This document shows positions 1 through 55,866 of a DNA stretch of 64,000 nt, piece by piece; positions within the stretch are counted from its first letter, which is position 1; each line of letters opens with the position of its first letter. The stretch covers positions 1,312,001-1,376,000 of the forward strand of contig OZ241986.1 in NCBI GenBank assembly GCA_965204375.1, read 5' to 3'. The notes beneath the pieces were generated by a model. The model saw only the letters and a list, made by a program, of their open reading frames with translations, searched no databases and was not told the DNA's origin. Position numbers and translations under genes: made by a program. This stretch comes from Candidatus Latescibacterota bacterium (GTDB taxonomy: Bacteria > Latescibacterota > UBA2968).

Positions 1-1191
1 CAGACGGCAATGGGGATCGATGCGTATTGCAAACCGTATTTTGCACGCGCTGGCGATTATCCGATGTATTTTCAGCCCCCCGGTACGCGAGGGGGTGGCG
101 TGGGCGATTTGACGACGACGAGGACGTCGGATCAGAATTGCGATTTGATGCGCACGCTGGCGGCTCAGGCGCGCAATCCATACTGGCAGTGGTATGTGGA
201 TATGCATCCGCAGAAAGAGAAAGGGGATACGAGAGAGCGTCGGTTGGATGCCGTGGGTGCCGGTCGGTCGCTCTATATCGATTTTGTGCGGGGTGCATTG
301 CCAGAAGTATGCGGGGAAGCGCCGGTGGATTTGCCTTCTTCAAAATGTTTTCGCGGCACGGGGTTGGTGGCGATGAATTCGGATTTGACTGATGGGAAAA
401 ACAATGTGTCGGTCATTTTTAAGAGCAGTCCATTGGGATCGCAGAGTCACGGTTTTGACGCGCAAAATTCGTTTTCGCTATTTGCTCTTGGCGAGCGTTT
501 GTTGATCCACACGGGCCAGCGCGATATTCACGGCAGCGACCACCACAAGAACTGGATGCACCATACGAAGTCGGTTAATTGCATTGGGGTAAATGGCGAG
601 AGTCAGTTGCGCAATCACGCTGCGGCTATGGGCGAAATTCTGGATTTTCAAACGTCGGATGTATTTGATTATGTTGCCGGCGAAGCCGCTCCGGCCTATG
701 GGGGAATGCTGAAGAAATTTACGCGGCAGATTTTGTTTGCCAAACCCGATGTGGTGGTGATTTGCGATACGGTAGTGGCACAAGAGGCTTCGACATTTCA
801 GTATTATTTACACGCTGAAACGGAAATGGATATCGAGGGCCAGACGCTAAAAATCACAACGGGTGATGCGGGCTGTGTGGTGTCTCTGCTGCGTCCAGAA
901 AATTTGAAAATCAGTCAGACCGATCAGTTTGATCCTCCGCCGCGAGAGCGCGTTCAGCTTACGGAGTATCACGTGACGGCAGAGACGGCGATACCGCGTG
1001 AAGAGGCTACGTTTATTGCGGTATTGAGACCGCATAAGGCTGGGGATGTGCCCGAAGGCGATCCGGGTGTGGTGGATGACGGAACTATAGTGGTGCCATT
1101 ACCCAATGGCGAGTTGAAGGTCTGGATGGGAGAGACATTGCGCGCGGAGAAAAGAGATCAAAACGGTGTTGTGGTGGCAACTGTGTGTTGA
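1..1191 (+). CDS. Heparinase II/III-family (DUF4962-like) protein, 5' part outside window
   Basis: Frame open from the window edge; motifs FKSSPLGSQSHGFDAQNSF, HHTKSVNCIGVNG and FTRQILFAKPD typical of the Hepar_II_III C-terminal domain. Confidence 0.75.
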   Translation, partial: QTAMGIDAYCKPYFARAGDYPMYFQPPGTRGGGVGDLTTTRTSDQNCDLMRTLAAQARNPYWQWYVDMHPQKEKGDTRERRLDAVGAGRSLYIDFVRGALPEVCGEAPVDLPSSKCFRGTGLVAMNSDLTDGKNNVSVIFKSSPLGSQSHGFDAQNSFSLFALGERLLIHTGQRDIHGSDHHKNWMHHTKSVNCIGVNGESQLRNHAAAMGEILDFQTSDVFDYVAGEAAPAYGGMLKKFTRQILFAKPDVVVICDTVVAQEASTFQYYLHAETEMDIEGQTLKITTGDAGCVVSLLRPENLKISQTDQFDPPPRERVQLTEYHVTAETAIPREEATFIAVLRPHKAGDVPEGDPGVVDDGTIVVPLPNGELKVWMGETLRAEKRDQNGVVVATVC

Positions 1192-1212: not shown

Positions 1213-2624
1213 TTGGAGATGGATGGCGATCAAACTGAGATGTTAGACGATATCCTGAAGATGATCCTGACGTATATCCAGTCTCAGGGTTATGACCGAG
1301 TACGGCTTTATCTCTATAACAAAGAGCGGGATGTGATGGAGGGGGCCTTCCAGGTGGGCATGGAACACGAGTTTCCGTTTTCCACCATCGTATATCCATT
1401 GAAAAGGGATCCCTACGCAAAACAGAGACTGGCCTCCAACCGCCCCTGGATCTATCGGGCCGGGAGGCCGGAATACGAGGTGGTTAGCCATCTCAATAGA
1501 GAAGCCGGTATCTTCTCCGACGCGACATCTCCTGAGCTGGAATGGGCCGAAATTCTCCTGAAGATTGTAGAGGGAGGCAGAGAAATTTTGATCGGGCAGA
1601 TCGGCCTGGACAACGAGTCCAGCAGGCGTCCTCTGGACCAGAAGCGACTGGACCGATTGATGGTGTACGCCTCCCATGCGGCCCTGGCTATCAGACATAC
1701 GCAACTCTACCATCGGATGGCTGAAGAGGTGCAGCACCGCACCTCAGAGCTAAATGAGCAAAACAGACAACAGGAGGCACTGCTGCATATCAATCAGGCC
1801 GTGCAGGAGATGAAGCGCGTCTCAGACCTTGGACAGATTGTTCGGGTCTGTTACAAGCATCTACGGGAACTGGAGTTGGATTTCCAGGCGATGGCGATCC
1901 ACCGGCTAATCGATGAAGAAACACAGACATTTGAGTCTTATGAGATCCAGCCTTCGGGAAAGTTCCACAGGCTGATGATGAAACGCGCCAACATCTACCG
2001 GATGTGGCTGGGTGGACAGACGGTTTATCGACGGGATCTGGAAGTGGACCCGGGCGGGATGACGGACGAGGCACTGACGGCGATCCACAGGCGCTACGGG
2101 ATTAGTCCCCGTTGCATCCTGGACATTCCACACACTCTGGGAACGGTCGCCCTTTTGAGTGTGCATCCGAACGCCTTTGCCGAATCCGAAAAGGCATTTC
2201 TGGAACGGGTTGCCAGCGTGTTGTCCATGGGCCTCGTGCGGGTGGCGGACTTGGAGCAGATTCGCAACTATCAGGTACAATTGCGGACTCTGGCATCTGA
2301 ATTGACGCTGGCCGAGGAGAAGGAACGGCGTCGCATAGCAAGAGATCTGCACGACGGGATCGGTCAGACTTTACTGGTTTCGAGGATGAAGCTGAGAGGA
2401 TCGAGGGCCCCGACATCTGCTCCTGAGCTTGTGAGGTCTATGGACGAAGCCCGTGAGTTTATCGATCAGGCGATTCAGAGCGTGCGATCGCTGACCTTTG
2501 AGCTCAGCCTTCCGATTCTTTACGAACTGGAGTTTGGCGCGGCGATGGAGTGGCTGGTTGAACAGATCCAGGAACAGCACGATGTTCAGATCGACTTAGA
2601 GGACGACGGGCAGTCTGAAAAAAT
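1213..2624 (+). pseudogene. GAF-domain sensor histidine kinase (HisKA_3), N-terminal part, interrupted by IS1595 element
   Basis: Two GAF-like segments and H-box EEKERRRIARDLHDGIGQ; frame breaks exactly at the TSD/TIR. Confidence 0.9.
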
Positions 2625-2648
2625 GGGGATTATGTAGAATAGTGTCCA
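2617..2648 (+). repeat. Left TSD (2617-2624) plus left TIR (2625-2648)
   Basis: gaaaaaat|ggggattatgtagaatagtgtcca read directly. Confidence 0.95.
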
Positions 2649-2998: not shown

Positions 2999-3084
2999 AA
3001 AAAAAAGAAGGCTTGCGCTTTTGGGAGCGCAAGCCTCTAAGTGGAGAAACAGGCAAATCGTCGAACCTCCCGTATTCCTCGCAC
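2999..3084 (-). ncRNA. Putative ~85-nt antisense RNA to the transposase leader
   Basis: Minus-strand TTGTCT(3119-3114)-N17-TATCTT(3096-3091); perfect 11-bp hairpin 3009-3036 followed by a U-tract on the minus strand. Confidence 0.5.
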
Positions 3085-3144
3085 AATTCAAAGATAAGGT
3101 GTGTTGAGCCAAAAGACAACATCTTTTTTTTGTTGAGGTGTGCC

Positions 3145-4083
3145 ATGGCTACCAATGCACCAGGCATGCATTTCCGTAAGGGCATGTCTCTCATCCAGCT
3201 ATTCAAGATGTTCCCGGATGATGAGACAGCCGAGAAGTGGTTTATTCACACGCGCTGGCCGGATGGTATCGCTTGCCCGCGATGTGGATCCGTCAACGTT
3301 CAGGAAAAGGCGATACACCCAACAATGCCTCACCGATGCAGAGACTGTCGTAGATATTTCTCTGTCAAGAAAGGCACAATGATGGAATGTTCAAATGTAG
3401 GTTATCAAATATGGATAATCGCCATTTACCTCTGGACAACAAACCTGAAAGGTGTTTCGTCCATGCACCTGCACCGCGATGTAGATGTGACACAGAGAAC
3501 CGCATGGTTTCTTCTGCACCGGATCAGACACGCTATGACGCCTGAACAGGTCGAACTGTTTGACGGCACAGTAGAGGTCGATGAGACGTATGTCGGAGGG
3601 AAGGAAGGGAATAAGCACGCGAAAGACAAACTGCGCTTAGGGGGCACGGCGGGCAAAACGCCAGTCGTTGGTGCGAAGAATAGAGAAACCAAACAGGTGC
3701 AGGCAGAAGTGTTTGAGGATGTAGATGAAGATGCGATAAATCAGTTTATTGAGGATTGTGTTGAAAAAGGCGCGACCGTGTACACAGACGGGTCACACGT
3801 CTATAACGCTCTGGAGGGGTATGAACACGATAAAGTGATTCACTCACGCGGTGAATATGTGAGAGGAGATGTATCAACAAACGGGATCGAGTCTTTTTGG
3901 TCGATGATAAAACGCGCAATCATGGGGGTGTATCACAAAATCAGCAAAAAACACTTGGGGAAGTATGTCGCTGAGTTTGTGGCACGGCAAAATATGAGAC
4001 CGCGAGATACCATCGACCAAATGAAACTGATTGCGGAATGCTTTGAAGGGAAAAGGCTTAGGTATTGTGAGTTGGTTTCATAG
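3145..4083 (+). CDS. tnp: IS1595-family transposase (Zn ribbon + DDE)
   Basis: CPRCGS...CRDC zinc ribbon; VEVDETY, YTDG, NGIESFWSMIK and EFVARQN motifs; RBS GAGGTG before ATG 3145. Confidence 0.95.
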   Translation: MATNAPGMHFRKGMSLIQLFKMFPDDETAEKWFIHTRWPDGIACPRCGSVNVQEKAIHPTMPHRCRDCRRYFSVKKGTMMECSNVGYQIWIIAIYLWTTNLKGVSSMHLHRDVDVTQRTAWFLLHRIRHAMTPEQVELFDGTVEVDETYVGGKEGNKHAKDKLRLGGTAGKTPVVGAKNRETKQVQAEVFEDVDEDAINQFIEDCVEKGATVYTDGSHVYNALEGYEHDKVIHSRGEYVRGDVSTNGIESFWSMIKRAIMGVYHKISKKHLGKYVAEFVARQNMRPRDTIDQMKLIAECFEGKRLRYCELVS

Positions 4084-5653: not shown

Positions 5654-5777
5654 AGAGAAACCCTCTCTGTGTGTGGTGATATTCCGGCGGATTGCCGTGT
5701 GCTGCTTCTCCCGGACTGCGACCAACAGGTAACGGGGACAGCACACGGCGCACCTTATAGGGGTGATAAAATGAAAA

Positions 5778-5984
5778 CTACTGACCGGATTCTTTTTTTA
5801 GCTCTTGAATGGCCCCAAGAACCCCATTTACCAAATCCATTGCGTCTTCCGGAGACACCCGATAGACATGAAAACCGGGAATTGTTTTTTGATCTAAGTC
5901 TTCCGATATGGCAATGTCCAGCATCTGCTTGTTGTGGACCAAATAAATCCTAAGTCCACCTTCTCCAACTGGTTCTTGTTGCAT
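5778..5984 (-). CDS. Small hypothetical protein (68 aa), first gene after RNA leader copy 1
   Basis: ATG 5984 preceded by GGAAGG; MQQEPVGEGGLRIYLVHNKQ... Confidence 0.55.
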   Translation of the reverse strand: MQQEPVGEGGLRIYLVHNKQMLDIAISEDLDQKTIPGFHVYRVSPEDAMDLVNGVLGAIQELKKESGQ

Positions 5985-6322
5985 AAAAATTATCCTTCCC
6001 CATAAAAAATTCCCGCAGTTATCTGGCGGTGGTGTTCCGCGCTCCGTTATGGAGCCGGGCAGAGATACCACCTCACGCAGACATACTGCGGGAAAAGTCC
6101 TACCTATTTGCCAAGATCGGGTAGCTAATCCGTTCTTTGTAGGTTGGCTATTCTATTCAGTAGGCTACCCGACGAAGCGGGTCTGCCGTAAGGTGGTATC
6201 AAAAAGAAAGCCCTGACGGTTCCATCAAACTGTTGATGAAGCGTCAGGGCTTCGAGTTTGTCCGTCAGGGCTAAAGCGATATTCGTAATGTAAGACAAAA
6301 TTATCAACAATCTGATGGATGC
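5985..6322 (-). ncRNA. Structured RNA leader, copy 1
   Basis: Leader 6303-6319 complementary to 6221-6237; hairpin 6209-6272 plus U-tract; closed multi-stem domain 6064-6200; G-U pairs work only on the minus strand; homologous to copy 2. Confidence 0.75.
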
Positions 6323-6326
6323 TGAT

Positions 6327-6354
6327 AATTTAACTTATCTAACCTGAGTGTCAA
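6327..6354 (-). promoter_or_regulatory. Putative sigma70 promoter, copy 1
   Basis: TTGACA-N16-TAAATT, positionally conserved with copy 2. Confidence 0.65.
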
Positions 6355-6377
6355 GATTTTTTGTATTTTATCTCCGG

Positions 6378-6397
6378 CACTATTCTACATAATCCCC
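6378..6397 (-). repeat. Internal third TIR (right-end orientation)
   Basis: cactattctacataatcccc, identical to the outer 20 bp of the right TIR. Confidence 0.9.
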
Positions 6398-6481
6398 TTC
6401 GATGGTCTGTGCAGACGCCATTGTTTTGTAAATATAGTCTTTTAATTCTTCTATTTCACGTTCAATATCGTATCTCTGCAT
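6398..6481 (-). pseudogene. 5' part of a small gene cut by the internal TIR
   Basis: MQRYDIEREIEELKDYIYKTMASAQTIE runs straight into the TIR (reads GDYVE* inside it); same position relative to RNA copy 2 as 5984 is to copy 1. Confidence 0.6.
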
Positions 6482-6838
6482 AAAAAAATCCGCAATAATC
6501 TGGTGAGTGGGTGCGACACCTTACATATTCGTGCAAGGTGTCGGGCAGAAGCACCACTTACGCAGACATACTGCGGAAACGTCCCTACTTATTCGTCCAG
6601 ACCGGGGAGCGACCCCAACCTTTTTGACAGACTATTGTATTGGGTAGGATACCCGACGAATCGGGCTGCCTAAGCGGTGCTATTTATTTTTCACACATAA
6701 AAAGCCCCGGCGGTTCCGTCAAACTGCTGATGAGGATTCAGAAAAAATCCTCACAGTTTGTCCGCCAGGGCTTTGTAAAAAAAGCGCATTCAAAATAGAG
6801 AAAAGATCAAACAAGCTTATCAGCAGTTTGACGGATGC
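6482..6838 (-). ncRNA. Structured RNA leader, copy 2
   Basis: Leader 6819-6835 perfectly complementary to 6715-6731; hairpin 6701-6774 plus U-tract; domain 6550-6681 with CCCGA-UUCG-UCGGG. Confidence 0.75.
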
Positions 6839-6842
6839 GTAT

Positions 6843-6870
6843 AATGTAACCTTTCAGAGATAGATGTCAA
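6843..6870 (-). promoter_or_regulatory. Putative sigma70 promoter, copy 2
   Basis: TTGACA-N16-TACATT. Confidence 0.65.
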
Positions 6871-7007
6871 GGTTTAATCCTCATAATACTCAAATTTTCG
6901 GTTGCCCATCACAGAGTAGTTTGGTAAATTAAAAGCCGTGCAGTGGAGAAAGCCACCACACGGCAATTGCGATTTTCACCCCAACCTTCCAAGAAAGGGG
7001 AAAAAGC

Positions 7008-7268: not shown

Positions 7269-7317
7269 TCACACCCCTCTCCCCGTGTTGATCGACATTC
7301 CCGGCGTCAACACTATT

Positions 7318-7349
7318 TGGACACTATTCTACATAATCCCCGAAAAAAT
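7318..7349 (-). repeat. Right TIR (7318-7341) plus TSD (7342-7349)
   Basis: tggacactattctacataatcccc|gaaaaaat. Confidence 0.95.
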
Positions 7350-7677
7350 GGGTGAGGAGGTAACGGTGCTTCTCTTCCGCACGGTGAGGGAGTTGCTGAT
7401 CAATGTCGTCAAGCACGCCCGGGCACACAGCGTGAGGGTGTCGATCCGAAAAGATGGTAGCCGTATAAGGATTGAGGTCGAAGATGACGGGGTCGGATTT
7501 GACACTTCGCAAATCGATTTTGGCCGCACACCCGGCAAGGGGGGATTTGGTTTCTTCAGCATCCGGGAACGTCTAAATTTTTTGGGGGGAAATTTTCAAG
7601 TCGAATCCGAACCCGGCCAGGGCACCCGGGCCGTCCTGACGGCACCGCTGAAGCAGAATGGGCACCCCGGGACGTAA
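7350..7677 (+). pseudogene. Histidine kinase C-terminal HATPase_c part
   Basis: RELLINVVKHA, EDDGVGFD, GGFGFFSIRER and ESEPGQGT boxes; rejoins in frame with 1213-2624. Confidence 0.9.
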
Positions 7678-7856
7678 ACTGGCAGGAGGGAGAAGGGGCA
7701 TGCTGCAAAGGCTCATCCATTTCCCGATGTCAATTCAGGTATATGGAAGTACACTGCTGGGGTTTTACCCCATTGCGCTCTTTCTTTTGCATCCTTATTT
7801 TGACTCTACAAACGCGCGCTGTTGAAGCAGAATGGAGAATCCAAAGGAGATGTGCC

Positions 7857-8510
7857 ATGAGCATCCGGATTGTTCTGGCGGATGACCACAAGATCCTGCG
7901 TGCCGGGCTGCGTGCCATGATTGTGGAACAACCCGACATGGAGGTGGTGGGAGAGGCCGAGAACGGGCGGACGGCGGTAAATCTGACCCGTGAGCTGTCG
8001 CCCGATGTGGTCATCATGGATATCGGTATGCCCGATTTGAACGGTATTGAGGCCACCCGCCAGATCGTTGCCGAGGTCCCCAGTGTTAAGATCATAGGCC
8101 TGTCGATGTATTCCGACAGGCGGTACGTGGCGGGCCTGTTCGGCGCGGGCGCGTCTGGCTATCTGCTGAAGGATATCGAGTTCGAGGAATTGATCGAGGC
8201 CATTCAAGCCGTAGTTGAAGGCCAGGTCTATGTGAGTTCCGGGGTGACGGGCATTGTGATCGAAGACTATGTACACCGCGTATCGGGCACAAAAAATGGT
8301 GGTATTTCTGCGCTGACACCCCGGGAACGCGAGGTGCTTCAACTCCTGGTCGAAGGCCGATCCACGAAGCAGATTGCTTATGAACTTGGAGTGAGTATTA
8401 AGACCGTTGAATCACACCGTCACAGAGTGATGGAAAAACTGGATCTTCACAACATCGCCGATCTCACCAAATATGCGATCCGCGCAGGGCTGACATCCCT
8501 CGAAGTCTGA
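7857..8510 (+). CDS. NarL/LuxR-family response regulator
   Basis: LADDH, IMDIGMPDLNG, YLLK receiver motifs; LTPREREVL...KTVESHR HTH. Confidence 0.95.
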   Translation: MSIRIVLADDHKILRAGLRAMIVEQPDMEVVGEAENGRTAVNLTRELSPDVVIMDIGMPDLNGIEATRQIVAEVPSVKIIGLSMYSDRRYVAGLFGAGASGYLLKDIEFEELIEAIQAVVEGQVYVSSGVTGIVIEDYVHRVSGTKNGGISALTPREREVLQLLVEGRSTKQIAYELGVSIKTVESHRHRVMEKLDLHNIADLTKYAIRAGLTSLEV

Positions 8511-11038: not shown

Positions 11039-11081
11039 GCGGGCTATGGATCGCGTTTTGATCTGTGCCCGCTTTTTTTTA
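11039..11081 (+). terminator. Putative intrinsic terminator between convergent genes
   Basis: gcgggc...gcccgc stem followed by a T-run. Confidence 0.55.
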
Positions 11082-13832
11082 TGGCGTTTGAAATACGCCC
11101 TGTCCGTATGTTCCGGCATATACCGTTTCGGGGCGCAAAGGGTGAATGGCCAGGGTGTAAACAAAGGTGTCTGTCAGTCCTGCGGGAATCCAGCTTCGCC
11201 CTCCATTGGTCGTTTTGTAGATACCGCCACCGGGGGTCGCGGCATAAACTGTCCGGGGGGTTGCAGGGTGGATAATAAGGAAGAGGATGCGTTTATTGGT
11301 CAGTCCTGTGTTGACGGGCGTCCAGAACATTCCCCCATCGACACTTTTGAATACACCGTCGTATGTCCCTGCGTAGAGGGTTTGTGGATGTGATGGATGG
11401 ATGGCGAGAGTTCGGACCTCTGTGTTGGTCATGCCAGCACTGGCGGGTGTCCATGATGCGCCTGCGTCGGTAGATTTGAATACGCCGTCCAGGGTTCCCG
11501 CGTAGAGGGTTTGTGGCTGTGCAGGGTGAGTAACGAGGGTTTGGACCTTTGTGTTTGTCAGGTCTGTGCTAGCCGGAGTCCATGATGCGCCTGCGTTAGC
11601 GGTTTTGAATACGCCGCCCAGGGTTCCCGCATAGAGGGTTTGTGGCTGTGCAGGGTGAGTAACGAGGGTTTGGACCTTTGTGTTTGTCAGGTCTGTGCTA
11701 GCCGGAGTCCATGATGCGCCTGCGTTAGCGGTTTTGAATACGCCGCCTGCAGTCCCGGCGTAGAGGGTGTGGGAGTTGGCAGGGTGGACAGTTAGGGAGA
11801 GAATCTTTGTATTCGCAAGTCCTTCGTCGGCTTTCCTCCATGATGCGCCTGCGTCGGTGGATTTGAATACGCCGCCCAGGGTTCCCGCATAGAGGGTCTG
11901 AAGATTTTCGAGGTCGGACACCAGGCAGATTACCCTCGCACCGCGCAGTCCTCGTTCCCGCCAGACTATCTCCTCAGTCCCGGTTTTGAAGATGCCGCCC
12001 AGGGTTCCAGCGTAAACGGTCCGAGGATTTTGGGGATCTACCGTCAGAGAGAGGGTGATCAGATGCGTCAGACCCGTGATGGTTCTTTCCCAGGTTGCTC
12101 CACCATCCGTGGTTTTGAAGATGCCTCCCCCCGTTCCGGCATAGACGGTTTGAGGGGCTTCGGGATCGATTGCCAGGGCAAAGACCCATTTCTGAGTCAG
12201 GCTGGTGCCGACGGATGCCCAGGTTTTTCCTCCGTCAATTGTTTTGAATAGTCCCTCGCCAGATGTTCCGGCATAGAGGGTCTGGGGACTTTCAGAATCG
12301 AACGCCAGGGCAAAAGTTTTCATACCCATATGTTCTATGTGGGTCCAACCCCCCTGGGAAGACATGTAAATACCTTCTGTTGTTCCTGCATAGAGGATCT
12401 GGGGATGGGCGGGGTGGACAGCCAGAGAGAGGACGCTGGTATGGGTGAGACCCATAGGTGACCATACCACGCCCCCATTTTGGGTTTTGAAGATGCCGCC
12501 AGCTGTTCCCGCATAGACTGTCTGGGGATCTGCAGAGTCGATCAACAGGGAGAGGATTTCCGTGTGGGTCAGTCCGGTATTGATCGCTGCCCAGGAACGC
12601 CCCCCACTGTCACTTTTGAAGACGCCGTTTCCAGCTGTTCCCGCATAGACTGTTTGGGGATTGATGGGATTGACCGCGAGAGCATAGACCCGGGTACCTA
12701 CCAGCACCGGTCGAGTCCAGGATGTGCCTCCGTCGATGCTTTTGAAGATGCCACCCGTTGCGCCGGCATAGACGGTCTGAGGGTCTGAGGGGACCAGTGC
12801 CAGTGCCTGGATATCCACATTTGTCAGTCCAGTATTGATATCTGTCCAGACCATTTCTCCGCTGGTGGTTTTGAAGACGCCACCTGCGGTTCCGGCATAG
12901 AGGGTCTGGGGATTTTGGAGGTCGGCTATCAGGGTATAGACGTTCAGGTCGGTCAGCCCTGCATGGTGCCAGGTCGCGCCTGCGTCGGTGGTTTTGAAGA
13001 TGCCGTGTGTGGTTCCAGCATATAGGGTGTGAAGATTTTGGGGATTGATTAGCAGAGAGAGAATTCTCGTGTGAGTCAGTCCTGAGGGAATCTCTGTCCA
13101 GGTGGTTCCCGCATCGGTGGTTTTGAAGACGCCACCTGTGGTTCCGGCGTAGAGGGTGTGGGGATTTTTGGGATCGACTGTGAGGGCATAGACGTTCAGG
13201 TCGGTCAGTCCTGCCTGGTGCCAGATCGCACCTGCATCTGTGGTTTTGAAGACGCCGTGTGTGGTTCCGGCATAGAGGGTGTGGGAATTTTTGGGATCAA
13301 CTGTGAGGGTATAGACGTTCAGGTTGGTCAGCCCTGCACGGTGCCAGGAGATTCCTGCATCTGTGGTTTTGAAGACGCCGCCTGTGGTTCCGGTGTAGAG
13401 GGTGTGAGAATTTTCGGGATCGACTGTGAGGGCATAGACGTTCAAGTTGACCAGTCCTGTGTTGATGGCCGTCCAGACAGATCCTCCACTGGTGGATTTG
13501 AAGATGCCGCCACCTTCTGTTCCCGCATAGAGGGTCTGGGAATGCGAGGGGTCAAATACAAGAGAAGAGATATTGTTATTGGTTATTCCCGCATTGACGG
13601 GCAACCAGATTGCCCCCCTGTCGGTGGTTTTGAAAATGCCACCACCTTTTGTTCCAGCGTAGAGGATCTGGGGATGCGAGGGAGTGATGACAAGAGCCGA
13701 AACTGTTCCGCCGTAAGGCCCCTTGTTCGCCCAGAGGATGTCTCCGGCGGCATTTCCGCACAGGGTAAGGCACAACAGGATTATCCCCGCTGTGTTCGCA
13801 GGAAGACAGGTACGGTCGGGTGTCATTGTCAT
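11079..13832 (-). CDS. Exported BNR/Asp-box beta-propeller repeat protein (21 repeats of ~41-44 aa)
   Basis: Repeats of TLYAGTxGGVFKTTDAGxxW counted by hand; N-terminal hydrophobic signal; ATG 13832 after AAAGGA. Confidence 0.85.
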   Translation of the reverse strand: MTMTPDRTCLPANTAGIILLCLTLCGNAAGDILWANKGPYGGTVSALVITPSHPQILYAGTKGGGIFKTTDRGAIWLPVNAGITNNNISSLVFDPSHSQTLYAGTEGGGIFKSTSGGSVWTAINTGLVNLNVYALTVDPENSHTLYTGTTGGVFKTTDAGISWHRAGLTNLNVYTLTVDPKNSHTLYAGTTHGVFKTTDAGAIWHQAGLTDLNVYALTVDPKNPHTLYAGTTGGVFKTTDAGTTWTEIPSGLTHTRILSLLINPQNLHTLYAGTTHGIFKTTDAGATWHHAGLTDLNVYTLIADLQNPQTLYAGTAGGVFKTTSGEMVWTDINTGLTNVDIQALALVPSDPQTVYAGATGGIFKSIDGGTSWTRPVLVGTRVYALAVNPINPQTVYAGTAGNGVFKSDSGGRSWAAINTGLTHTEILSLLIDSADPQTVYAGTAGGIFKTQNGGVVWSPMGLTHTSVLSLAVHPAHPQILYAGTTEGIYMSSQGGWTHIEHMGMKTFALAFDSESPQTLYAGTSGEGLFKTIDGGKTWASVGTSLTQKWVFALAIDPEAPQTVYAGTGGGIFKTTDGGATWERTITGLTHLITLSLTVDPQNPRTVYAGTLGGIFKTGTEEIVWRERGLRGARVICLVSDLENLQTLYAGTLGGVFKSTDAGASWRKADEGLANTKILSLTVHPANSHTLYAGTAGGVFKTANAGASWTPASTDLTNTKVQTLVTHPAQPQTLYAGTLGGVFKTANAGASWTPASTDLTNTKVQTLVTHPAQPQTLYAGTLDGVFKSTDAGASWTPASAGMTNTEVRTLAIHPSHPQTLYAGTYDGVFKSVDGGMFWTPVNTGLTNKRILFLIIHPATPRTVYAATPGGGIYKTTNGGRSWIPAGLTDTFVYTLAIHPLRPETVYAGTYGQGVFQTP
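11503..11747. repeat. Two identical 116-bp segments with 129-bp period inside the propeller gene
   Basis: 11503-11618 equals 11632-11747. Confidence 0.85.
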
Positions 13833-14136
13833 CCGTCCTTTACTGGATGATGTAGAGGGGCAGACATGGACGGCAATATAATGTACGGTCACCTGTAAAA
13901 TCAAGCTCTGCACAACAAATTATCCATTCCCTGATATCACTTCAGGTTTTTGGAACCGCACAATCAGGGTTTGTCCCAATTGTGCTTTTATTTTTTTGAT
14001 TGTAATTTATGCTTAGGAATTTTAGAAGTTTATCTAACCACCTAAAAGGAGGGATGAATGAAGGAAATTGCGAATACGTGGTTGTTTTGAGGGGATTTGT
14101 CATATTTCATACCTGCATGCAGGAAGGAGGATAGCT

Positions 14137-52381: not shown

Positions 52382-52468
52382 AAAGCGGTTGCCTTTAGGC
52401 CAAATAACAGATAGAATGAATAAAATAAATTTAGATTACAAATATATGCAAATCAAGTTTTCAATAGG
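52350..52468 (-). repeat. Promoter/5'-end cassette, copy 1 (41-bp identical core 52428-52468)
   Basis: aatttagattacaaatatatgcaaatcaagttttcaatagg recurs at 55826-55866; minus-strand TTGATT-N17-TAAATT. Confidence 0.85.
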
Positions 52469-55780: not shown

Positions 55781-55866
55781 GACGTGGCTGCCTTGAGGTC
55801 CAATAAAAGATAGAGTGGGTGAAACAATTTAGATTACAAATATATGCAAATCAAGTTTTCAATAGG
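55749..55866 (-). repeat. Promoter/5'-end cassette, copy 2 (41-bp identical core 55826-55866)
   Basis: Direct repeat of 52350-52468, offset ~3.4 kb. Confidence 0.85.

Follow-up and report, generated by a model that had tools for sequence, protein, structure and literature searches.

A candidate riboswitch-type 5'-leader RNA family of Latescibacterota with two members inside an IS1595-family transposon

INTRODUCTION

Several described classes of regulatory RNA resemble, each in some respect, an RNA that occurs in two copies (A and B) on the minus strand of a 64,000-nt stretch of a Candidatus Latescibacterota genome (GenBank assembly GCA_965204375.1, contig OZ241986.1, positions 1,312,001 to 1,376,000; hereafter the window). 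In the pbuE/ydhL adenine riboswitch (RF00167), the terminator borrows its 5' strand from the 3' portion of the aptamer, with the 3' strand of the P1 helix included, so that a stabilized aptamer prevents termination; the related add aptamer uses masking of the Shine-Dalgarno sequence. The cyclic di-GMP (c-di-GMP-I/II, GEMM) and cyclic di-AMP (ydaO) riboswitches occur in several copies per genome before heterogeneous genes, often those for secreted, surface, or cell wall functions, and employ both terminator and Shine-Dalgarno platforms. In the ZTP, SAM-II/V, preQ1, and fluoride riboswitches, a strand immediately downstream of the closing helix folds back to pair with the core. The two copies lie within a transposon of the IS1595 family, whose features include an 8-bp target duplication.

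The RNA of the window shares these traits and departs from each class. Its proposed ON logic and the use of its own 3' part, including the P1 3' strand, would be those of pbuE, whereas its fold (P1/P1b, a P3-P4 arm, and a 3'-tail pseudoknot) and sequence are unrelated, it has no Rfam match, and its regulon has no purine theme. Like GEMM and ydaO it is multicopy, precedes heterogeneous genes, and has both kinds of platform; Rfam searches found nothing that matches those models in sequence or structure. As in the ZTP group, a strand 3' of the closing helix, NRCCCGRC, pairs into the core with GUCGGGUN and thereby couples core folding to the beginning of the expression platform, but here the pseudoknot partner competes with two hairpins, and size and junction topology differ. 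The host transposon resembles other passenger-carrying IS1595 elements: its transposase is of the DDE_Tnp_IS1595 type and has a Zn ribbon, and the element bears terminal inverted repeats, passenger genes, and an 8-bp duplication; unlike them, it has three inverted-repeat copies and places a promoter, a leader-terminator, and a riboswitch-like RNA before its passengers. No report of such a promoter- and riboswitch-carrying IS1595 arrangement was found in the portion of the literature that could be consulted.

Here we propose that A and B are probably members of a new family of structured 5' leaders of about 150 nt in Latescibacterota, acting in cis as riboswitch-type switches. The proposal rests on the combination of a covarying core, a pseudoknot to the platform, competing helices, two types of platform, and a predicted position at the start of the transcript. 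Latescibacterota (WS3) are abundant in sediments and sponges, and to our knowledge the phylum has no cultured, genetically tractable members.

RESULTS AND DISCUSSION

A multicopy RNA family without an Rfam entry

Copies A and B are each about 150 nt long (Table 1). A BLAST search of the window's own genome (G000, 6.34 Mb) found six copies of the leader RNA, and a covariance model (CM) built from 47 homologous sequences returned eight matches, each with an E value of 1.5e-26 or lower. Within the window, copy B scored 127.3 bits (E value of 1.9e-33, model R1) and copy A 125 bits (E value of 8.7e-33). The CM was run within the phylum and on metagenome stretches that had been selected with a core pattern. 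It matched 63 of 151 Latescibacterota genomes, with as many as 13 matches in one genome and 206 in total at E ≤ 1e-4, in families f1, f2, f4, f8, and f9. By group, positive genomes amounted to 18/19 in g1, 15/15 in g10, 0/8 in g24, and 0/13 in f10. The CM also matched all 31 of the metagenome stretches selected by the core pattern.

Of 168 genomes of the phylum, 36 contained a core pattern, whereas its reversed control matched none. When an 18-base core pattern was run on contigs of one genome per species, it picked out 62 stretches, 15 of which, all in records titled as other phyla, lacked the rest of the motif and were set aside as chance matches. According to their titles, the remaining 47 stretches (four with truncated RNA copies) came from Latescibacterota/Latescibacteria (40), Gemmatimonadota/Gemmatimonadetes (6), and an "uncultured bacterium" (1). 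The six records titled Gemmatimonadota/Gemmatimonadetes were L045, L051, L054, L079, L085, and L093; at least some of them were identical in sequence to genomes placed in the window's phylum (for example, L051 and L016), so that record titles and GTDB placement disagree. Exact matches to a core pattern were absent from viral contigs.

Screening of the whole window with Rfam 15 (4227 models) produced no match at the gathering thresholds. At E ≤ 10 over the region nothing overlapped the RNA cores, and at E ≤ 0.5 no match overlapped the leader RNA in 12 other homologous loci. A MicC alignment over the leader terminator was rejected as spurious (19.2 bits versus a threshold of 90). Separately, locus L172 carried subthreshold matches to group II intron domain 5 at 1574-1649 on the plus strand (28.2 bits versus 40 and 27.1 versus 61). 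The literature on Latescibacteria with riboswitches or structured RNAs, and on IS1595 with riboswitches, yielded nothing relevant as far as it could be consulted. The RNA appears to be a previously undescribed family without an Rfam entry and an orphan riboswitch candidate.

Family members were sometimes paired at a distance of 0.5 to 2 kb, either divergently, as in L063 (1218-1383, minus strand, and 1913-2087, plus strand), or in tandem, as in G000 (660413-660566 and 662503-662656, minus strand). Insertions truncated some copies (L035, L029, and L011): in L035/L088/L095, L029/L070, and L011/L053, unrelated sequence cut the RNA off after the P3-P4 region, and in L035 an IS1595-like transposase gene adjoined the break.

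A covarying core with a pseudoknot

RNAalifold analysis of the 47 homologues gave five helices, P1 (11 bp), P2 (CCCG:CGGG), P3 (CCUAC:GUAGG), P4 (GCCN:NGGC), and P5 (CGCA:UGCG), with double compensatory changes in 16 of 27 pairs. The differences between A and B in P1 and in the distal arm (GCCAA/UUGGC versus GUCUG/UGGAC) were likewise compensatory. All of the pairings listed for the two copies by a first-pass annotation of the window, including the CCCG..CGGG hairpin, were read from the minus strand at the positions it had given.

Covariation was evaluated on 63 distinct homologues for a structure comprising P1, P1b, a pseudoknot-type helix, P3, and P4, with 500 shuffles and with slid controls. 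Paired cells made up 97.1% of the total, compared with 79.9 ± 0.6% after shuffling (0/500) and 33 to 37% in the slid controls. Both sides had changed in 23 of 31 pairs, and the covariation score was 0.55 versus 0.21 for shuffled alignments and at most 0.06 for slid controls. This conserved structured domain with covariation is of the kind expected of a riboswitch. The P3-P4 arm also contained the invariant internal loops GAAUACAAYAG and RAAUAR.

The pseudoknot-type helix is an additional 8-bp pairing between GUCGGGUN, which consists of the 3' strand of P2 plus its flanks, and the NRCCCGRC strand located 2 to 4 nt 3' of P1. The alignment model lacked this helix. In 62 distinct sequences, 491 of 496 cells were canonical, with compensatory changes; the last pair was A-U in 25, C-G in 20, U-G in 11, G-C in 2, and U-A in 2 sequences, and the first was G-C in 56 and A-U in 3. 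In 21 further metagenome sequences, all eight pairs were formed in 20 and seven in the other. The partner strand competes with the local CCCG:CGGG stem and with the hairpin directly following it.

A second overlap was observed at the CUGCG strand, which is common to P1b (with the 5' GCAG) and to P5 (with the CGCA just upstream). P1b exhibited compensatory changes from G-C to A-U and from A-U to G-C or U-A, while P5 changed from C-G to U-A eight times and from G-C to A-U five times. We read the covariation of both helices as apparent selection on two alternative conformers.

Alternative pairings with putative terminators and ribosome-binding sites

The stretch following the core has a characteristic order: a small hairpin, a near-copy of the P1 5' strand, and then the complement of a segment within the core, designated g (UUCCCGCA plus a variable loop). 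In the window, the complements of CCGCAGUAUGUCUGCG were exactly where the first-pass annotation had placed them (Table 1). It had described CCGCAGUAUGUCUGCG as invariant, which does not hold for the family, conservation being confined to (U)UCCCGCA and CUGCG, with a variable loop in between. It had also named loss of the complementarity in other homologues as the outcome that would speak against it. The complementarity was retained and followed the variable loop: across 22 sequence classes the cognate g:downstream duplex energies summed to -358.7 kcal/mol, compared with -304.0 ± 12.5 kcal/mol for permuted pairings (0/20000).

In A and B, however, a run of six or seven U residues lies between the complement and the ATG, there is no Shine-Dalgarno sequence, and the first ATG after copy B (6003-6001) is in a different reading frame from the cargo open reading frame (ORF). 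The likely cargo start after copy B is the ATG at 5984-5982, preceded by AAGGA. The copy A platform is followed by a 33-codon ORF, also without a Shine-Dalgarno sequence, that runs into an internal inverted repeat. A complement followed by a U-run was found in copies A, B, D, E, and G and in genus g10, and a complement overlapping the Shine-Dalgarno sequence or AUG was found in the C-type, L012, L014, L027, L047, L087, L155, and many others. Copy E, which is promoter-proximal, lies at 6243982 to about 6244230 in G000. The proposed control of translation of the first cargo gene is doubtful for A and B, given the U-run and the terminator-like minimum free energy (MFE) fold described below; translational control, by Shine-Dalgarno/AUG masking, is predicted elsewhere in the family.

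The predicted MFE fold of copy B (5995-6200, 206 nt) had an energy of -77.2 kcal/mol (z of -4.4), with 6092-6064 paired to 6035-6010 and abutting the U-run, and the centroid was the core fold closed by P1. For copy A (-76.1 kcal/mol), 14 nt of g were paired downstream and P1 was absent. With hand-set ends, the extended terminator hairpin was 5 to 8 kcal/mol below the aptamer plus tail in A, B, D, and E. The modeled terminator-like stem of A and B encloses about 40 to 60 nt of inner structure and ends at 6489 before U7 in A and at 6010 before U6 in B. In these models, the platform of A and B resembles a terminator and not a box that controls translation. Pairing of the core is mutually exclusive with that of the platform, and one core is joined to both terminator-type and Shine-Dalgarno/AUG-type platforms, as in riboswitches.

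Five C-type copies (L003, L037, L039, L040, and L098) had a tiny conserved ORF about 75 to 100 nt after the core, with the variants MFKNTFA, MFMFKNTFT, MFKNVFT, and MFCFKNAFT, downstream of a Shine-Dalgarno sequence that pairs with the core loop. Judged by its sequence, this ORF may encode a leader peptide.

Predicted position at the start of the transcript

In 51 of 63 loci, a promoter-like motif (TTGNNN-16..18-TANNNT) ended 3 to 12 nt before P1, compared with none of 63 control windows taken 60 nt further upstream, indicating that the RNA normally starts its transcript. Copies A and B are among the 12 exceptions and would be fed through the transposon's own promoter-like site and leader-terminator. 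The 5'-leader location expected of a riboswitch is thus predicted from the promoter motif and from the fact that, in most loci, an ORF preceded by a Shine-Dalgarno sequence begins a short distance beyond the core. A search for sequencing runs that cover 5700-7000 returned three, all stored as contigs and from a single study, and no RNA run.

Proposed mechanism and competing explanations

We propose that the core consists of P1, P1b or the alternative P5, the P3-P4 arm, and the 8-bp GUCGGGUN:NRCCCGRC helix. Its 3' half (segment g, CUGCG, and the P1 3' strand) would re-pair with the mimic of the P1 5' strand and the g complement, the latter being the putative 3' strand of an intrinsic terminator in A, B, and several classes or the Shine-Dalgarno/start codon region in many members. 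Stabilization of the core, most likely by a ligand, would block the extended hairpin and turn transcription or translation on; without ligand, the extended hairpin would terminate transcription or mask the ribosome site. Ligand binding, the ON sign, and transcript ends at the U-runs are inferred, the ON sign because the pbuE adenine switch likewise consumes the aptamer 3' half in its terminator. Copy B would gate a 68-amino-acid protein and a predicted exported M8-like metallopeptidase. The description of the RNA as a riboswitch-like aptamer in the first-pass annotation agrees well with the conserved covarying multihelix core, the 5' transcript position, and the alternative pairings to downstream control signals.

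Several observations weigh against this interpretation. Classes L028, L030, and L034 showed no cognate complementarity (ranks 19 to 21 of 22). Two g10 representatives kept P1 in the MFE fold, as did 16 of the 22 classes when folded automatically, with the alternative fold in the other 6; the automatic 3' ends were badly chosen for E, L034, and L086, being cut at a U-run inside the hairpin loop, and copy E refolded with a hand-set end adopted the terminator conformer. Since the MFE of most classes keeps P1, thermodynamics alone fixes neither the default state nor the sign of regulation. The sites at 6010-6004 and 6489-6482 were missed by a simple scan for terminators, owing to its loop limit of 3 to 8 nt. 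P2 (CCCG:CGGG) exhibited no double changes, suggesting that CGGG may use either partner. The first ORFs were heterogeneous with no metabolite theme, and in genus g10 the next ORF was often 400 to 700 nt away, a spacing compatible with a stand-alone small RNA as well.

The absence of a metabolic theme among mostly exported proteins bears on an alternative that we consider unlikely, namely, a leader read by a protein or another trans-acting factor, such as an antiterminator or translational repressor, that stabilizes one fold. Ribosomal-protein leaders and PyrR/TRAP-type systems provide precedents, the family was restricted to one phylum in the searches as run, and the structural evidence would fit a protein ligand equally well. 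Against it, no conserved neighboring regulator gene was seen in the loci read, and the large core with its many invariant unpaired nucleotides and pseudoknot is like those of metabolite aptamers, although neither point is decisive.

An independent trans-acting small RNA gene, for which the downstream complementarity would simply be its own terminator, would account for the promoter-like motif directly before P1, for the U-run terminator about 70 to 90 nt after the core in several classes, and for the distant ORFs of g10. However, many members lack a U-run, five or more T residues before the start codon being found in only 17 of 57 called loci, and such members have an ORF with a Shine-Dalgarno sequence 35 to 60 nt after the core and a complement that overlaps the Shine-Dalgarno sequence or AUG. 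As the mimic of the P1 5' strand would also have no role, we regard this explanation as very unlikely.

The number of copies, their heterogeneous neighbors, the association with IS1595, and the pseudoknotted conserved core recall self-cleaving ribozymes and other processing elements, which are typically multicopy, associated with mobile elements, and without a consistent gene partner. The Rfam searches described above returned no ribozyme, and a fixed position after a promoter together with covarying terminator or Shine-Dalgarno pairing are switch features unlike those of known ribozymes, making such an element highly improbable. The suggestions of a ribozyme or a processed antisense RNA in the first-pass annotation found no support.

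The family is well suited to experiments, as it offers a deep covarying alignment, a pseudoknot, two selected competing helices, and both transcriptional and translational platforms on one core. Knowing the ligand would show which signal controls the dozens of exported proteases, lipoproteins, and proteins of unknown function in these organisms.

The IS1595 transposon

The element that carries A and B (Table 1) has the transposase with a Zn ribbon, the inverted repeats, and the target-site duplication of an IS1595-family transposon. Its 19- to 20-nt repeat is present in three copies, compared with 0.01 expected by chance. A sensor kinase gene with HisKA_3 and HATPase_c domains is interrupted by the insertion (parts at 1213-2637 and 7285-7677), and its frame resumes exactly across the element. 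The split gene (GAF/HisKA_3/HATPase_c) adjoins a LuxR-type response regulator gene at 7743-8510.

The right end of the transposon holds two tandem units, 77% identical, each with a promoter-like site, a leader/terminator-like stem, a U-run, and the leader RNA. Copy A looks like a remnant unit cut off by the third inverted repeat. From the sequence, a 17-bp leader helix (AUCCAUCAGAUUGUUGAU with AUCAACAGUUUGAUGGA) would compete with the GC-rich terminator-like stem. The transposon leader was also found at other IS1595-type ends, in G000 and in three congeners, and the module of inverted repeat, TTGACA promoter, and leader resembles an attenuator or the boundary of a cassette. Further module sites in G000 were at C1:4398606-4399360 and about 3520770-3521520, and in two other IS1595-type copies the halves of the leader stem flanked a whole small passenger gene. 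Control by a countertranscript from the plus strand promoter-like sites at 6301-6329 and 6817-6845 was considered and rejected, as these would fire away from the first helix of the leader.

Three of the eight G000 copies (A, B, and G) have an IS1595-like transposase gene no more than 3.6 kb away, copy G beginning about 100 nt after a divergent one. As tblastn detected only nine such transposase hits in the 6.34 Mb, we estimate that about 0.07 neighbors would be expected by chance. The other five copies have no such gene within 95 kb. Elsewhere, a transposase gene of this type was present within the DNA read at 4 of 40 f4/f8 loci and in several f1-f3 classes. The RNA is not specific to IS1595, yet it is enriched near IS1595 elements. 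The label of IS1595 junction RNA in the first-pass annotation was hence too narrow, most homologues having their own promoters, while the link that it pointed to is real; the CM search that it suggested for contexts outside IS1595 found them in the five distant copies. An RNA serving transposition itself, as a transposase regulator or guide-like RNA, would explain the proximity of the three copies and of several other loci but has next to no probability, because such a gene was missing from the 2.5 kb read at 36 of the 40 f4/f8 loci, the gene that the RNA faces is always a passenger or an ordinary one, and the transposase of the window is convergent and 2 kb away; an IS1595-only reading was rejected on the distribution of copies.

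The repeated placement of the RNA in transposons of the IS1595 type suggests that passenger genes can take regulatory RNAs along with them, which bears on how regulons are assembled. We suggest only tentatively, and with considerable doubt, that the family may be a new class that senses an envelope-linked signal or a global second messenger, controls a phylum-wide regulon of exported proteins, and has been mobilized by IS1595-family transposons, along with passenger genes, in the form of a ready-made "promoter-switch-gene" cassette. If this were true, a transposon would be spreading ligand-controlled gene expression.

Table 1. Positions of the leader RNA copies, the transposon, and adjoining features in the window
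Feature	Position	Strand	Details
Leader RNA, copy A	6681-6537	-
Leader RNA, copy B (core)	6200-6051	-	P1b GCAG/CUGC; P3 CCUAC/GUAGG; P4 GCCAA/UUGGC
P1, copy A	6681-6671 / 6560-6550	-	AGCACCGCUUA / UAAGUGGUGCU, read from sequence
P1, copy B	6200-6188 / 6076-6064	-	GAUACCACCUUAC / GUGAGGUGGUAUC, read from sequence
Pseudoknot strand, copy A	6657-6650	-	GUCGGGUA
Pseudoknot strand, copy B	6173-6166	-	GUCGGGUA
Pseudoknot partner, copy A	6547-6540	-	UGCCCGAC
Pseudoknot partner, copy B	6061-6054	-	UGCCCGGC
Segment g, copy A	6576-6561	-	CCGCAGUAUGUCUGCG
Segment g, copy B	6092-6077	-	CCGCAGUAUGUCUGCG
Platform, copy A	6536-6482	-	hairpin CGACACCUU..AAGGUGUCG; mimic of P1 5' strand GCACCCACU 6514-6506; g complement CAGAUUAUUGCGGA 6502-6489; U-run 6488-6482
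Platform, copy B	6050-6004	-	hairpin GCUCC..GGAGC 6055-6041; mimic of P1 5' strand ACACCACC 6035-6028; g complement CAGAUAACUGCGGGAA 6025-6010; U-run 6009-6004
IS1595-family transposon	7341-2625	-	transposase, inverted repeats, 8-bp duplication, passenger genes
Transposase	3013-4083	+	Pfam DDE_Tnp_IS1595 132.6 bits; Zn_ribbon_IS1595 26.2 bits
Left target-site duplication	2617-2624	+	GAAAAAAT
Left inverted repeat	2625-2644	+	GGGGATTATGTAGAATAGTG
Internal third inverted repeat	6397-6378	-	between A unit and B unit
Right inverted repeat	7341-7322	-
Right target-site duplication	7342-7349	+	GAAAAAAT
Promoter-like site and leader, A unit	6870-6699	-	TTGACA 6870-6865; TACATT 6848-6843
Leader/terminator, A unit	6771-6699	-	stem 6771-6704; U-run 6703-6699
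Promoter-like site and leader, B unit	6354-6201	-	TTGACA 6354-6349; TAAATT 6332-6327 (promoter scan)
Leader helices, B unit	6319-6201	-	17-bp early helix 6319-6303 / about 6238-6222; GC-rich stem 6271-6210; U-run 6209-6201
First cargo gene after copy B	5984-5778	-	68 amino acids, MQQEPVGEGG...; Shine-Dalgarno AAGGA 5997-5993
Second cargo gene	5746-4703	-	predicted exported, zinc metallopeptidase-like; HEIGHALGF motif

Genes downstream of the RNA and other features of the window

The 68-amino-acid product of the first cargo gene after copy B matched no Pfam family. The second cargo gene gave a weak match to leishmanolysin (Peptidase_M8; 24.7 bits versus a cutoff of 21), and a Peptidase_M8-like gene also followed family member L140 in another genome. 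Among ten first ORFs scanned with Pfam, two had no match, and the matches included Peptidase_S8 with TIG, Dockerin_1, Peptidase_M8, GFO_IDH_MocA, Dynamin_N, BtrH_N, OMP_b-brl, and WD40. Strongly hydrophobic N termini were found in 31 of 57 first ORFs, as called by a crude ORF and Shine-Dalgarno caller that miscalled some. Most of the metagenome examples, judged by eye, start with signal-peptide or lipobox-like sequences, and the five G000 copies far from IS1595 precede genes for exported proteins or lipoproteins. Export was the one trait recurring among these heterogeneous genes.

Elsewhere in the window, a 944-amino-acid ORF (11079-13913, minus strand) contains about 21 repeats with a period of 123 to 132 nt (…TLYAGT.GGVFKTTDAG.SW…), characteristic of a BNR/Asp-box-like beta-propeller repeat protein. 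The window also has a perfect 41-nt direct repeat, with its copies at 52428-52468 and 55826-55866, 3.4 kb apart.

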